Shown piece after piece: positions 2,362 through 7,046 of a DNA stretch of 7,046 bases. The notes beneath the pieces were generated by a model that was not told the DNA's origin, made no database searches, and saw nothing but the letters and a program-made list of their open reading frames with translations. The stretch's first letter is position 1. Every line of letters begins with the position of its first letter. Origin of the DNA: a virus (Duplodnaviria; Heunggongvirae; Uroviricota; Caudoviricetes); the IMG/VR virus record IMGVR_UViG_2609459803_000005. One strand, written 5' to 3'. The position numbers and the translations under genes are program-made.

Positions 2362-2748
2362 TTATCTCCCTTTCGCTATATAGCAAAGATTAAACCCACC
2401 GGCGCCTGACATACGGGCTGTAAAACCCGTTCTTGAAGTACCAGTTGAGTTAACTCCATAAGCAGGCATGGTTGCTGGAGAAAGCAGAGACTCCTGGATA
2501 TCTGCCATTGTCAGTGTAATTGATTCGACCCGCGCGGGGAAAGGTAGCGGGAAAACAACATTCGTCCCTGTCTGTCCAACGGGGAAACCGAAAATACCCC
2601 ATTGTGTAATTACCCCATCCGGCCCCTTACTCCATCCAGATTTAGGAATCGGCCAGTCTGCTGCTCCAGAGTGCCCCGTTGTAAAACTACTCATATCTGG
2701 TACTTGCCCGGTATCCGTTCCGACGTTCCTCGTTGCCGCTTCTCCCAA
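2362..2748 (-). CDS. Alternative tail-fibre C-terminal variable segment (Sv'-like), silent in this orientation, expressed only after inversion
   Basis: Minus-strand ORF 2362..2793. Residues 15-18 (GLGE) are encoded by the inverted copy of the crossover repeat, so inversion would fuse the upstream fibre remnant (...ENLGLGE) in frame to this segment. The ORF's first ~14 codons lie outside the invertible segment and are probably not coding. Confidence 0.65.
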   Translation of the reverse strand: MGEAATRNVGTDTGQVPDMSSFTTGHSGAADWPIPKSGWSKGPDGVITQWGIFGFPVGQTGTNVVFPLPFPARVESITLTMADIQESLLSPATMPAYGVNSTGTSRTGFTARMSGAGGFNLCYIAKGR

Positions 2749-2765
2749 ACCAACGTTTATGAAAA
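2740..2765. repeat. Right crossover site of the invertible segment (inverted relative to the left site; internal dyad AAACC-AA-CGTTT)
   Basis: CTTCTCCCAAACCAA at 2739-2753 is the exact reverse complement of 874-888. It lies 55-80 bp upstream of the invertase start, the usual arrangement in Gin/Cin/Pin systems. Confidence 0.6.
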
Positions 2766-2819
2766 TGCAGAAATAACGATCAAATGGCATCATTCCTGCT
2801 TTTGTCAGGGAGATCTACC

Positions 2820-3374
2820 ATGCTTATTGGCTATGTACGTGTGTCAACAAATGACCAGAACACAGATCTACAACGTAATGCGCTGAACTGTGCAGGATGC
2901 GAGCTTATTTTTGAAGACAAGATAAGCGGTACAAAGTCCGAAAGGCCGGGACTGAAAAAACTGCTCAGGACATTATCGGCAGGTGACACTCTGGTCGTCT
3001 GGAAGCTGGATCGGCTGGGGCGTAGTATGCGGCATCTTGTCGTGCTGGTGGAGGAGTTGCGCGAACGAGGCATCAACTTTCGTAGTCTGACGGATTCAAT
3101 TGATACCAGCACACCAATGGGACGCTTTTTCTTTCATGTGATGGGTGCCCTGGCTGAAATGGAGCGTGAACTGATTGTTGAACGAACAAAAGTTGGACTG
3201 GAAGCTGCTCGCGCACAGGGACGAATTGGTGGACGTCGCCCCAAACTTACACCAGAACAATGGGAGCAGGCCGGACGATTAATTGCAGCAGGAATTCCTC
3301 GCCAGAAGGTAGCGATCATCTATGATATTGGTGTATCGACTTTGTATAAGAGGTTTCCAGCCAGGATTATATAA
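2820..3374 (+). CDS. Serine recombinase, DNA invertase of the Gin/Pin/Cin/Hin family
   Basis: N-terminus MLIGYVRVSTNDQNTDLQRNAL carries the catalytic-serine motif (YVRVST), followed by DRLGRS and a C-terminal HTH, in a protein of about 185 aa. GGGAGA Shine-Dalgarno 6 nt upstream of the ATG at 2820. The ORF-track start at 2784 is an in-frame upstream extension without a ribosome-binding site. Closely resembles e14 Pin as I remember it. Confidence 0.92.
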   Translation: MLIGYVRVSTNDQNTDLQRNALNCAGCELIFEDKISGTKSERPGLKKLLRTLSAGDTLVVWKLDRLGRSMRHLVVLVEELRERGINFRSLTDSIDTSTPMGRFFFHVMGALAEMERELIVERTKVGLEAARAQGRIGGRRPKLTPEQWEQAGRLIAAGIPRQKVAIIYDIGVSTLYKRFPARII

Positions 3375-3411
3375 AACCGCAGACACGCCGTATGCAAGAC
3401 GTGCTGCGGTT
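3375..3411 (+). terminator. Stem-loop immediately after the invertase stop codon (possible terminator or RNA-stability element; no U-tract)
   Basis: AACCGCAGACACG ... CGTG-CTGCGGTT forms a stem of about 12-13 bp with one bulge, starting 1 nt after the TAA. No T-run follows, so intrinsic termination is doubtful. Confidence 0.25.
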
Positions 3412-3570: not shown

Positions 3571-4470
3571 CTAATCATTATGGAGTATTTGATCGCCGTA
3601 TGGCCAGCCATTTTCCCCAGGAAGGGTCATACCTAACATTGGCATAATACTAAGTTGTCCAATGGTAAATCCTAGAGCACTTGTATTACTGATTCCGGCA
3701 TAGGTCATATCAAGGGGGTTAGACTCTGAGCTGGACATAAAAAGATTTCTTGTGCCAATTCTATTCGCCATTGAGAACTGAATATGCCCACCAATTGTAT
3801 TTACGGTGTCCTGAGATATCCAGTTGTTTAACGCGATAAATGGCGCCCGCCACCAGTTAAGCGTGCCATTCTCAAAACGCCCCCTCGTCATCTCAATATC
3901 TTCCCGAAACTGCTGCTTTCTGTCTCCCAAGACTACCGGGGTACCTGTTGTCAGGTCAAGGCAGTCCTCAATTACAAGATTAGTGGGGTTTGATGGGGTG
4001 TTGTAGATCTTAATGATTTTATGTACCTGTGTTCTGAAACAGAATCCGTAAATAATCATCTCCGTTGCTACAGAACGGGGAAAAAACTGGCCAATATCCA
4101 GTATAAATTTTTCCGCGATTCCCTTTGTTAAAACTGCAATTTCATAAAGACTCGGGTAACTATCATAAGTCAACTCCGGCTGCTGAACATCATAATAATT
4201 AACTTCATGTAATGAAGATAATGATACGGCAAGTAACTCCTTCACATTTATACCGATCATTGTTCCTCCTGCAAAGCCGAAACCAAACTCCATAATTTTT
4301 TCCGGAGATAGACGGTATATGTCATTGGAGCGAATAACTGATACCGGAATCGAGAATAGTTTAGGACAGTGATTTGTCATTACACTTTCATGCTGGGTGA
4401 TTCTTGAGTCGCTTACGGCCCAGATACTTTCCCCTTCTTCCCTGTTTAGCCAGCAGGCTATTGCTGTCAT
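3571..4470 (-). CDS. Hypothetical protein, 299 aa, unknown function (possible Ntn-hydrolase/HslV-like N-terminal region, unverified)
   Basis: Long minus-strand ORF (track 3571..4608). I place the start at the ATG at 4470 because it has a strong AAGGGGG Shine-Dalgarno 6 nt upstream. This gives MTAIACWLNREEGESIWAVSDSRIT... I recognise no family with certainty. Confidence 0.7.
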   Translation of the reverse strand: MTAIACWLNREEGESIWAVSDSRITQHESVMTNHCPKLFSIPVSVIRSNDIYRLSPEKIMEFGFGFAGGTMIGINVKELLAVSLSSLHEVNYYDVQQPELTYDSYPSLYEIAVLTKGIAEKFILDIGQFFPRSVATEMIIYGFCFRTQVHKIIKIYNTPSNPTNLVIEDCLDLTTGTPVVLGDRKQQFREDIEMTRGRFENGTLNWWRAPFIALNNWISQDTVNTIGGHIQFSMANRIGTRNLFMSSSESNPLDMTYAGISNTSALGFTIGQLSIMPMLGMTLPGENGWPYGDQILHND

Positions 4471-4872
4471 TGAAAACCCCCTTTTAAGTAAAAAAATCAG
4501 ATTCAGATAGTGCATACATAATTTAGTCAAGTCATCTCTTTTAAGACGCATTGAGAAATGGTTGCTCAAGGTGCGCCAGTGAACGCGCACGAAAATAACT
4601 TCTTGCATTTCCCATTACACTCTGACTTTAGGGCCGCGTTAGATTTTAACATGGTGGCCGTGCATCCATTTAAATTGGTAATCTGGAGAATGAGTAACGC
4701 TGAATAGATTAACAATCTATGCGACTAACGGCCCTTAAAAGCGCAGCTCATAACATCGAATTTTACCAGTTTAGTCATTTTTAAAAAGTGCCCGAAAAAT
4801 GTTGTCCACGATTTGTGCTCTACGTCCCATCTTGACCTACTCCCTGATAATTCACTCAGAAGGCGGTTAGCA

Positions 4873-4900
4873 ATGTCCGTTAAGTGCTCACAACGGACAT
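4873..4900. promoter_or_regulatory. Perfect 9-bp inverted repeat (ATGTCCGTT-N10-AACGGACAT) inside the cargo-cassette spacer; candidate operator or RNA hairpin
   Basis: Directly visible dyad symmetry. It lies between the two cargo genes, inside the questionable 78-aa ORF. Confidence 0.3.
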
Positions 4901-4951
4901 TCAGCCCACTAAATCCGACCGTGTCGCTCAATATGCGGACAGGTTGTAGTG

Positions 4952-5554
4952 CTAACTGCATTGTAGCTGTGAGATTTCACCATCGATGGCTTCTATAACC
5001 TGTTTATAGCGGAGCATGACCTCATCATGAATCATCATTAATCCGCGGCCGTACTCTGTGGCTAGGATTGTGTATCTTTTCAGGTGTGCAAGATGTTCTT
5101 TGTTGCCAGTAATGTCACTTGCAACCTGCGTGGAGTCCAGCCGTTCGATAAGCGCATTATTGCCGCGATAGGAATCAATTAGGCTTCTTGCGCTTGTATA
5201 AAAAGCCACAATTTTTGAGAGTGTTTCTCTATGAACTTCAGGTAGGGATGCCGAGTTGGCTTCATAGAACGTGAAGTAGTTTTGAGTAATGGGGAAAATG
5301 TTATCGAACGGTGAGTTCCGGTCGTATTTTTCGATTTCTTCTGCCATTCTGGCCTGATACAGTTTAATCAGTGAGTCTATTTCCTCTCTGACACCCAATA
5401 GCGTTGTTATACGCTTCTCTCTGGCCGCTGTTGCCTGCTGTTTTGCCTGCTGTTTCACCTGAGTTGTCACTCCTATCATCGTGAAACAGCCACCTAAAAG
5501 AGCTGCTAAAAATGCGGAGATGAGATCTGAATATTCGTGCCAGAAGGTTAGCAT
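4952..5554 (-). CDS. Hypothetical membrane-anchored protein, 200 aa (one N-terminal hydrophobic helix, then a charged, probably helical domain)
   Basis: Minus-strand ORF whose N-terminus has a hydrophobic stretch (LISAFLAALLGGCFTMIGV), followed by a K/Q/E/R-rich segment. No convincing Shine-Dalgarno before the first ATG (5554). An alternative internal start at 5479 has an AGGTGG upstream but would remove part of the hydrophobic helix, so the start is uncertain. Confidence 0.65.
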   Translation of the reverse strand: MLTFWHEYSDLISAFLAALLGGCFTMIGVTTQVKQQAKQQATAAREKRITTLLGVREEIDSLIKLYQARMAEEIEKYDRNSPFDNIFPITQNYFTFYEANSASLPEVHRETLSKIVAFYTSARSLIDSYRGNNALIERLDSTQVASDITGNKEHLAHLKRYTILATEYGRGLMMIHDEVMLRYKQVIEAIDGEISQLQCS

Positions 5555-5565
5555 GGCGAAAATTC

Positions 5566-5588
5566 CATTGGGTTAAATTATGTCTATT
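5566..5588. promoter_or_regulatory. Perfect palindrome GGTTAAAT-N7-ATTTAACC 12 bp upstream of the first cargo gene; candidate operator overlapping a -10-like hexamer (CATAAT on the minus strand, 5572-5577)
   Basis: Exact 8-bp inverted repeat read from the sequence. AT-rich, so more likely a protein-binding site than a stable hairpin. Confidence 0.3.
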
Positions 5589-5888
5589 TAACCACATAAT
5601 GATACGAAGATACCTTCCAAAATGTTGCTATGACCCCATCTGTTGTTGCCTGGCTGGTGACGTGTCTGGGTATTAGCACCGTGCTCTCTCATTATCTAAG
5701 TCTGGGCCAATCCTCGTTCATAACAGGCATTCACTTCAGTCATGGCAGAAAGGTATGCATGCTGGAGAAGTCATGAAAGAAAAGAAGACTTCTGCCTCGT
5801 TTGTCATCACTGTTATCTTCTCATTGATTATGCAGGTCATAGTGGGGACACACAAAGCTTTGTACTATCCGATAGTGGTTAAGGTGGA

Positions 5889-7046
5889 TCACTCCACCTT
5901 TTCATCAAGCCAATCCGCCCACCACTGCATCATTTCTCTGCGCTTATCGAGATACTGAGCATGGTTGTAAATACCGCGCACAGATCCGCCGTTGGCATGT
6001 GCCAGTTGCACTTCAATAGCGTCAGCAGGCCATTCGTGCTCGTTCATAATCGTGCTGAATTCATGCCTGAATCCGTGACCGCTTTCCAGACCCTCATAGC
6101 CGATTTGTTTGATCACAAGTAGCACCGCGTTCTCGCAAATTGGCTTCTTCTTATCGTTGCGCCCGGAAAAAACAAACTCTGATACTGGTTTAGTGATTGA
6201 GCTTAGTGTAGTGAGAAGTTCAACCACCTGGTCTGACATCGGGACCACATGAATTTTGCGTCCCTTCATTACACTGGCGTCGATGGTGATAATCCTGTTT
6301 TCAAAATCGACGTTCTTCCATAGCATGGAGCGAAGCTCTTTCGTTCTTAGGGCTGTGTAGCGCAAAACTTTAGTCGCAATGAGCGATACGATACTTCCTG
6401 AAAATGTTGCCAGTGCTTTATTGAATGCCGGGATCTGGTCTGCAGGAAGAAACGGGAAGTTTTTCTTGCGGTATCCCTTCATGGCGTCAGCAAGGTCAGG
6501 TGCCGGGTTATATTTAGCCCTACCAGTGACAATAGCGTAACGGAAAACCTCGCCGCATCTTCTGCGGGCTTTATTTGCTCGCTCCATTGCACCGCGATCT
6601 TCAAATCTGCGGATTACTTCCAGCAGTTGCATCGGCTCAATCTCCTGAATTTCAAGGCCGCCGATGATAGGTAAAATGTCGTCATCAAACATTTTTGCAA
6701 GTTCAGTCGCATACCCTACTGACCATACTTGCTTCTTGTGCTCGTACCATTCCTTGTAAATCGCACTAAATGAATTGTTGTTAGACGAAGCCTTTTTCGC
6801 CTTTACCGGATCGATGCCAACCGAGATGTCTTTCCTCGCAGTCCATGCCTTATCCCTTGCTTCCTGCAAAGTCATAAGCGGATATTTTCCGACGGTCAGG
6901 ATTTTCTCCTTACCGTCAATCTTGTAGCGAAGCTGCCATACCTTTTTCCCGGATACAGGAACATAAAGGTACAGGCCATTACCATCGAGAAGGCGGTATG
7001 GTTTTTCTTTCGGCTTTGCTGCTTCAATCTGCTTAACGGTGAGCAT
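5889..7046 (-). CDS. intS: Tyrosine recombinase, P4-type prophage integrase (IntS-like, CPS-53/KpLE1 family)
   Basis: Complete 385-aa ORF. Tyrosine-recombinase catalytic residues are visible near the C-terminus (HGFRHEFST with H-x-x-R, and VRGIYNHAQY with the catalytic Tyr). The start codon is the last triplet of the window, so the expected tRNA attachment site lies outside it. Symbol inferred from the dsdC-proximal context and my memory of K-12 IntS. Confidence 0.88.
   Translation of the reverse strand: MLTVKQIEAAKPKEKPYRLLDGNGLYLYVPVSGKKVWQLRYKIDGKEKILTVGKYPLMTLQEARDKAWTARKDISVGIDPVKAKKASSNNNSFSAIYKEWYEHKKQVWSVGYATELAKMFDDDILPIIGGLEIQEIEPMQLLEVIRRFEDRGAMERANKARRRCGEVFRYAIVTGRAKYNPAPDLADAMKGYRKKNFPFLPADQIPAFNKALATFSGSIVSLIATKVLRYTALRTKELRSMLWKNVDFENRIITIDASVMKGRKIHVVPMSDQVVELLTTLSSITKPVSEFVFSGRNDKKKPICENAVLLVIKQIGYEGLESGHGFRHEFSTIMNEHEWPADAIEVQLAHANGGSVRGIYNHAQYLDKRREMMQWWADWLDEKVE

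Follow-up and report, generated by a model that had tools for sequence, protein, structure and literature searches.

Morons, and the conserved linkers found at the module boundaries of temperate phages, are concepts which reportedly go back to Hendrix and Juhala and to Susskind and Botstein. Integron attC sites carry R' and R'' cores with the consensus GTTRRRY, type III toxin-antitoxin (ToxI-like) loci have tandem direct repeats of ~30-40 nucleotides (nt) upstream of the toxin gene, and retrons place a reverse transcriptase gene beside a structured msr-msd RNA. Little is understood of the shuffling of cargo and defence genes in prophage hotspots. In the present study we have analysed a stretch of 7,046 nt (the window) from a virus of the Caudoviricetes (IMG/VR record IMGVR_UViG_2609459803_000005), in which a spacer of 481 base pairs (bp; 4471-4951) separates the genes of a 200-amino-acid (aa) and a 299-aa protein. 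A first-pass annotation of this DNA had considered the spacer as a possible structured RNA or multi-operator region inside a single cargo cassette. We argue that it is very probably a seam between two separately inherited gene modules and not one functional unit, and we describe a boundary site of ~28 nt, one copy of which is the hairpin at this seam.

As with morons and linkers, independent units composed of a leader, a gene and a 3' hairpin lie here between the integration module and the tail-fibre genes, related prophages carry different units at the same position, and short sequences are shared at the seams. The locus differs in that many seams, belonging to several genera, share one site with a conserved asymmetric centre, and in that this site mostly lacks the U-run of an intrinsic terminator. 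The window corresponds to the IMG/VR contig UViG_2619619133_000005 and is identical to the prophage remnant at tRNA-Arg/intS of E. coli NADC1036, and the seam is located in the cargo hotspot of this remnant, which is flanked by the integrase on one side and by the tail-fibre/Pin region on the other. The minus strand carries, in this order, IntS (7046-5889), the 200-aa gene (5554-4952), the 481-nt spacer and the 299-aa gene (4470-3571), the cargo array pointing toward the convergent Pin invertase and the invertible tail-fibre genes. The length of about 480 bp given to the spacer by the first-pass annotation agrees with the 481 nt counted between the stop of the 200-aa gene at 4952 and the start of the 299-aa gene at 4470. 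In some genomes a RefSeq model of 345 aa extends the 299-aa gene into the spacer. Since the start ATG at 4470 with its following Thr is kept in 22 aligned homologues and ~35 loci (some with ATC or TTG starts), the spacer is a genuine gap and the 345-aa model an over-extension.

The spacer is a mosaic. Read along the coding strand, it begins with a trailer of ~50 nt belonging to the 200-aa gene (4951-4902), followed by a stem-loop (4901-4872), a linker of 26 nt (4846-4871), what is left of the first ~24 codons of a divergent gene now lost, in antisense (4845-4783), and, finally, ~310 nt that lie upstream of the 299-aa gene and belong to it, most likely containing its promoter and leader. The last part, 4471-4782, was formerly shared between two divergent genes. 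The spacer owes its length to being a seam, in which the trailer and the boundary hairpin are joined by the relic of a gene and by what used to be a bidirectional intergenic region.

The limits of these parts are seen where relatives cease to match. Strain PSS-04 has a deleted copy of the 200-aa gene which, together with the trailer, agrees with the window as far as the centre of the hairpin; beyond this centre a different gene pair follows, coding for a 163-aa protein and an HNH endonuclease. In strain TL20 the match reaches 4833 and stops at an IS3 relic. From the other side, the relative L024 shares 4473-4890 at 88% identity and encodes a 299-aa protein 93% identical to that of the window, located between two MFS transporter genes and without the 200-aa gene. 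The 200-aa gene is also missing from a Pantoea locus (L017) and a metagenome contig (L018), in which the 299-aa protein is 80-81% identical and which share the DNA from 4473 to 4838/4845, with 73-74% identity by BLAST and 74-76% in the alignment. The 26-nt linker is common to L024 and TL20/L093 and is not found in L017 or L018. Because L024, L017 and L018 share this DNA without having the 200-aa gene, ~370 nt of upstream sequence travel with the 299-aa gene; past the stop codon of the latter, homology ends at once.

The relic at 4783-4845, on the plus strand, was recognised by tblastn within a colinear nucleotide alignment. In L018 a divergent gene of 337 aa (2387-3400, minus strand) is intact and starts 308 nt upstream of the 299-aa gene; residues 4-24 of its product match the window, with 13 of 21 identical. 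The copy in the window has lost its Shine-Dalgarno sequence and its start codon has changed from ATG to ATT. Only the contig L018 keeps the gene intact, while 127 codons are left in Pantoea L017, and in L024 and E. coli ~24. Former coding sequence of this gene makes up the block of the spacer with the highest conservation (~4800-4815). The 337-aa protein itself has Cys-rich C-terminal motifs and gave no family match.

The opposite end of the spacer belongs to the 200-aa gene. Its trailer (4902-4951, minus strand), which contains a first, weaker stem-loop at ~4918-4944, is conserved together with the gene in Serratia, Dickeya, Cronobacter and phage-plasmids. In the 11 trailers compared, which come from five genera, the conserved sequence covers ~85 nt past the stop codon and ends in a stem-loop, beyond which the sequences diverge. 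These trailers, taken at 90 nt, fold better than shuffled sequences (z from -2.5 to -4.8). The stem-loop follows the 200-aa gene in all 11 contexts and consists of UCCGCU, a loop nUGAGCGAnn and AGCGGA; four of the six pairs of the stem are invariant in the 11 trailers and the other two can form in 8 and in 10 of them. In the window (4872-4901, minus strand) it has perfect arms of 10 bp at 4872-4881 and 4892-4901 around a 10-nt centre, GTGAGCACTT, so that the hairpin of the first-pass annotation is present and slightly larger than noted. Its folding energy on the sense strand is -16.4 to -16.8 kcal/mol (z -4.4), and a perfect 10-bp arm arises in 0.4% of dinucleotide shuffles (P~0.004). A dispersed repeat of the repetitive extragenic palindromic or enterobacterial repetitive intergenic consensus (REP/ERIC) type was considered for the trailer and rejected, the trailer being present in only 11 E. 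coli genomes and always with the 200-aa gene.

The stem-loop represents a copy of a ~28-nt boundary site with the consensus ATGTCYGYT-nTGAGCGAnn-ARCGGAM, which is met again in many enterobacterial prophages at places where cargo genes have been exchanged. In ~25 copies, arms of 6-10 bp surround a near-invariant TGAGCGA centre. Further copies follow the adjacent cargo unit in Cronobacter (L088, 5047), Serratia (L086, 5334), PSS-04 (L004, 4673) and L024 (5484), and the site also occurs in L018 between small genes. The Cronobacter genome GCA_052287655.1 has three sites. The window, PSS-04 and L024 have different halves of the site in common: PSS-04 retains the gene-proximal arm and the core alone, and L024 the core and the distal arm alone. 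In the window a second, degenerate copy with the core TGAACGA lies in front of the 200-aa module (5702-5729, minus strand); it does not fold as a hairpin and marks the seam between an integrase-side element and the 200-aa module. Between the two copies the gene is accompanied by a co-inherited leader (5555-5701, minus strand), which could be aligned over 10 contexts and whose homology begins at the core of the site. The gene with its leader and trailer is a discrete unit having a boundary site on both sides (L086-L099).

The integrase-side element is a non-coding stretch of ~130 nt, extending by BLAST over 5711-5841 (main part 5730-5841, minus strand) and ending in the boundary site. It is unannotated in the records examined and has matches in 2014 of 5426 complete E. 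coli genomes, at places such as argW-intS, pao/yagP, icd, the bioA-ybhB region and the ends of CP4-57-like islands, where it lies on the cargo side of the integration module or at the attachment (att) end of prophages and islands (L006, L100-L107). After its boundary site eight different continuations were found. Over these eight loci the identity is 0.80 before and through the core, drops to 0.55-0.59 in the next 10 nt and is 0.21-0.32 beyond, each cargo starting after the core with an ARCGGAM-like arm of its own. We found no description of this site in the literature, by a search that was shallow.

Two roles may be considered for the boundary site. We infer that on the sense transcript it acts as a 3'-end hairpin, terminator-like or stabilising, and that as DNA, since it is shared by many modules, it represents a linker at which modules are exchanged. 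For the role in RNA speaks the sense orientation of the site at the 3' end of the units. Sense folding is also stronger than antisense folding (-9.2 against -7.2 kcal/mol, in 21 of 29 sites, P=0.001), by means of G-U pairs, and exceeds that of shuffles; the 10-bp stem at 4872-4901 is, moreover, G+C-rich as in intrinsic terminators. Against it, the centre is more conserved than the arms. A terminator scan of the spacer gave no match, and a T-run follows the stem-loop in only one of 11 relatives (L095). As to the role in DNA, the missing U-run, the copies that do not fold, the conserved centre and the half-sites segregating with their neighbours would be expected of a recombination site.

A stronger form of the same idea is that the stem-loop and its copies are a putative site-specific recombination site, in the manner of integron attC/attI or Xer-dif, with strand exchange in the TGAGCGA centre. 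Several observations are in favour of it: inverted arms surround an asymmetric centre that is better conserved than they are; the upstream module takes with it the gene-proximal arm and the core, the downstream module the distal arm; copies flank single cargo units; eight different cargos begin directly after the same core; and hybrid junctions unable to fold still retain this core. The locus also resembles integrons in the strand-biased folding of the site and in having imperfect palindromes between single-gene units, whose halves go with the units on either side. However, there is no recombinase that all contexts share. There is no IntI-type integrase, the recombinases of the window being only the P4-type IntS and the Pin invertase, and several loci with the site, among them those of Serratia, Dickeya and the phage-plasmids, have no integrase or other recombinase within 3 kb. 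Furthermore, the cassettes have their own leaders, unlike those of integrons, and the site is conserved in sequence (TGAGCGA, GTCCGCT/AGCGGAC) and not in structure alone; it contains no GTTRRRY on reading the sequence and resembles neither the dif nor the attC consensus. Homologous recombination at conserved linkers would leave a similar picture. We thus regard site-specific exchange as rather unlikely, and we would be equally sceptical of its extension, in which the hairpin is a copy of a dedicated cassette-exchange site with TGAGCGA as crossover core and forms part of a putative integron-like platform beside the integration module. Should this be true, the site would serve temperate phages, phage-plasmids and integrative islands of Enterobacterales for the insertion and exchange of single-gene cargo, much of it defence-like, and the platform would be present in about two in five E. 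coli genomes. With a short, recognisable sequence at the exact seam in thousands of genomes, cargo units could be delimited automatically and site-specific exchange be tested directly. Together with the stand-alone proteasome-like gene described below, the recurrent boundary site may be the part of this locus that deserves pursuit.

The remainder of the spacer, 4471-4782 on the minus strand, represents the native upstream region of the 299-aa gene and includes the Shine-Dalgarno sequence, the TTGACT motif and all the inner dyads. As ~310-370 nt of upstream sequence were inherited with the gene into sites that have no upstream gene on the same strand (L017, L018, L024), we infer that the promoter of the 299-aa gene lies within 4471-4782. 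The alignment of relatives comprised the window and the three distinct sequences that share this DNA, in which 4471-4782 is 88% identical to L024 and 74-76% identical to L017 and L018. Four-fold sites of the 299-aa gene show 58-60% identity to L017 and L018; against L017 the comparison is 76% for the upstream DNA and 58% for these sites, which indicates that the region has probably been under moderate purifying selection, as expected for promoter or leader DNA. Joint inheritance and moderate conservation thus support an own control region. The TTGA of the -35-like TTGACT (4525-4530, minus strand) and the Shine-Dalgarno sequence (G-rich, 4477-4483), both of which are present as noted in the first-pass annotation, are conserved. 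From these two motifs the annotation had suggested that the downstream gene has its own promoter; what we recover of this is the inherited control region, the sigma-70 consensus being missing. Outside the locus the region was not encountered: BLAST of E. coli, plasmids and phages gave only this same locus beside the 299-aa gene, and an nhmmer profile found no match upstream of homologues of 60% identity or more distant ones, so that the region is traceable only within the clade of at least 80% identity.

The inverted repeats that gave rise to the first-pass proposal do exist at their noted places, namely the palindrome ATAGATT-AAC-AATCTAT at 4704-4720, the near-palindrome CCATTTAAATTGG at 4666-4678 and the imperfect outer inverted repeat at 4627-4642/4725-4739. 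The description of the spacer as dyad-rich holds for the hairpin, which exceeds chance, and fails for all other dyads. In 4471-4838, without the hairpin, there are two perfect stems of at least 7 bp where 0.6 are expected (dinucleotide shuffles, P=0.15), and the best imperfect inverted repeat outside the hairpin has a score of 18, the mean of the shuffles being 17.9 (P=0.52). The inner dyads are chance features of AT-rich upstream DNA.

The analysis of the alignment bears directly on the structured RNA of ~110 nt that the outer repeats had been proposed to close. According to this explanation 4620-4745 would be a non-coding RNA required by both flanking proteins, in the manner of ToxI or of the retron msr-msd, and it can call on the existence of the dyads and on the moderate conservation of the surrounding DNA along with the 299-aa gene; as in ToxIN and retron loci, a non-coding stretch adjoins a gene in a defence-type hotspot. 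The alignment, however, contains no compensatory pair. In L024, L017 and L018 the noted structure, with its outer stem and two inner dyads, has several broken pairs, the palindrome and the outer arm GCGGCCC are lost in relatives, and the 79% of paired cells is that of column shuffles, 290 of 500 of which reach it. The outer repeat, as said, is at chance level. The region 4471-4845 has no RNA-structure signal on either strand, its minimum free energy being slightly worse than that of shuffles (z of +0.5 and +0.8 for the minus and the plus strand, respectively), and the consensus given by RNAalifold for the four sequences was weak and mostly invariant, its covariation term amounting to -2 kcal/mol. 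Rfam 15 had no match in the spacer (cmscan of the whole window, E<=1, two weak IS009 matches being located elsewhere). Unlike in type III toxin-antitoxin loci, no tandem repeats were detected in 4400-5000 (Tandem Repeats Finder, minimum score 30). Unlike in retrons, no reverse transcriptase was found: the three window proteins scanned (299 aa, 200 aa and a 78-aa open reading frame, ORF) gave no Pfam match above threshold, and for the other ORFs of the window the RefSeq record of the identical locus gives genes of tail fibres, an invertase and an integrase. The profile of the region, which finds nothing upstream of the 60%-identity homologues, and the fact that the 200-aa and 299-aa proteins are not obligate partners are also contrary to it. 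The only element with a stem beyond chance, the hairpin, belongs to the 3' trailer of the upstream gene and to a module boundary and not to an RNA between partner proteins. We therefore consider a non-coding RNA of this kind highly improbable and already largely refuted. A hidden gene for a small protein appears just as improbable. The candidates are ORFs of 78 aa (4725-4961, minus strand), 28-49 aa (4566-4715, minus strand) and 49 aa (4558-4707, plus strand), and two antisense-overlapping frames are indeed open in all four related sequences, but the amino acid identity of ~50% is the one predicted from the nucleotide identity without selection. Moreover, starts and lengths vary among the relatives, L024 is frameshifted in the first half, and no family match was obtained; the 78-aa ORF spans the module seam and, on reading the alignment, meets a stop after 15 codons in the Serratia trailer. 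More room is left for 4471-4782 as a protein-bound regulatory region, in which short conserved blocks would bind proteins as operators of the 299-aa gene and, formerly, of its divergent neighbour. The change slower than at four-fold sites, near-invariant blocks such as GATGTYATGAGCTGCG and ATGCACKGMCACCATG, and the bidirectional intergenic region of L018 are consistent with it, and the lack of a consensus sigma-70 promoter would suit activator dependence. On the other hand no regulator gene co-travels, the palindromes named earlier as an operator set are not kept in the relatives, and four sequences cannot tell binding sites from shared ancestry. We regard this explanation as possible but doubtful. 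With regard to the proposed RNA or operator array between partner genes, which is not supported, the spacer is ordinary, and mosaic ancestry with a normal upstream control region explains the gap.

Some results weigh against the seam with its own control region and exchange linker, and have to be set beside those that support it. A promoter scan found no sigma-70 consensus promoter on the coding strand of the spacer, and read-through from the 200-aa gene into the 299-aa gene is possible. Over the short divergence to L024 the upstream DNA (88%) and the four-fold sites (86-88%) change at nearly equal rates. A protein-binding site may be present inside the upstream region, which only four distinct sequences carry; this number also gives the covariation test little power against a small structured element. 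As for the hairpin, no U-run follows the stem at 4872-4901, the sequence there being GCUAACCGCC. Compensatory changes in the trailers are few (three pairs), with a covariation score reached by 26 of 500 shuffles, and about one third of the site copies, typically hybrid junctions, fold no better than shuffles. The site copies share descent, so that the statistics overstate their independence.

The 299-aa gene (3571-4470, minus strand) encodes a stand-alone proteasome-beta-like protein. The AlphaFold model (predicted local distance difference test, pLDDT, 84; predicted template modelling score, pTM, 0.87) has 20S proteasome beta subunits as its top Foldseek matches (E~1e-8), with 277 matches in the PDB at E<=0.001. 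The protein is thus predicted to adopt the proteasome-beta/N-terminal nucleophile (Ntn) hydrolase fold, an alpha-beta-beta-alpha sandwich, its Thr coming right after the start Met, the removal of which would expose this Thr as nucleophile. In 22 aligned homologues this Met-Thr start is invariant along with D21, S22 and K37. The conserved Asp and Lys are 16 residues apart, the spacing found between Asp17 and Lys33 of the proteasome. The protein shares with proteasome beta subunits and HslV the predicted fold and the Thr directly after the start Met; it differs from them by a sequence identity of only ~12% and the absence of a Pfam match, by ~60 extra C-terminal residues, and by a gene without nearby partner ATPase or alpha subunit that is located in cargo sites of mobile elements. 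No match was obtained in Pfam, PADLOC, PHROG or NCBIfam, nor with the family profile against PDB sequences, and nothing relevant was found in the literature on proteasome-like defence genes. The family comprises 866 clusters at 50% identity. The gene is a candidate for a new defence or accessory gene, and its family of stand-alone proteasome-like proteins, found in cargo sites of satellites and prophages, is sizeable and uncharacterised.

Homologues of the 299-aa gene (L007-L085) occupy cargo sites of a P4-like satellite, of prophages and of small islands; they are seen after the primase of the satellite, beside genes of the cyclic-oligonucleotide-based antiphage signalling system (CBASS) type and next to a HEPN gene. 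Upstream of 25 homologues we found no conserved partner gene, their neighbours being unrelated except in two pairs of related loci, and the upstream gaps range from an overlap to 610 nt. The two cargo genes had been assigned to one cassette, which holds in so far as they form one block of 2.5 kb in seven E. coli genomes and does not hold elsewhere, where each occurs without the other. This block is present in 7 of 5426 complete E. coli genomes with 99-100% identity and in at least three different elements among those seven, namely an argW prophage, a lambda-like prophage at torT and a prophage-like segment, with tail-tip J and tail-fibre genes, of pSM107_MCR, a conjugative plasmid bearing a shufflon. 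In NADC1036 it is located in a fuller prophage with baseplate genes. A two-gene defence system made of the 200-aa and 299-aa genes was considered and rejected, the genes being together only in the seven near-identical E. coli copies and apart in the other genera examined.

The 200-aa gene (4952-5554, minus strand; 26 homologue clusters) encodes a protein with an N-terminal membrane helix and a coiled-coil-like part, which gave only weak N-terminal ZorB/MotB-like matches (E 0.002). What follows the gene varies. It is HEPN-Toprim in Serratia and DUF4238 in Cronobacter; in Dickeya a small ORF comes next, and behind it lies a convergent gene for a giant helicase; other E. coli have an HNH pair or an insertion sequence (IS) relic. 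In ~110-kb IncFIB plasmids with phage-type genes it is followed by GNATs, an oxidoreductase or small ORFs; in Enterobacter, Citrobacter and Salmonella, such plasmids have the 200-aa gene as a constant part and a variable cargo slot next to it. Two unannotated cargo genes adjoin the 2.5-kb block, one of 410 aa in the lambda-like prophage (L001/L002, 5434-6666, minus strand) and one of 445 aa in strain TL20 (L005, 4296-5633, minus strand), neither with a Pfam match.

At one end of the window the tyrosine integrase IntS (385 aa; 5889-7046, minus strand), assigned from its ORF and the RefSeq annotation of the identical NADC1036 locus, adjoins tRNA-Arg in the complete genome. The two weak Rfam matches to IS009, for which the gathering score is 117, lie on the minus strand at 5066-5234 (18 bits) and at 1963-2152 (47 bits, E 1e-8), the latter inside the overlap of convergent tail-fibre assembly genes in the invertible segment. 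At the other end an ORF at 1-537 on the plus strand begins with what we take to be the N-terminus of a LysR-type regulator (DsdC-like) and, after this putative regulator start, continues as phage tail-fibre sequence, which suggests that the prophage remnant is fused there to a truncated chromosomal gene.

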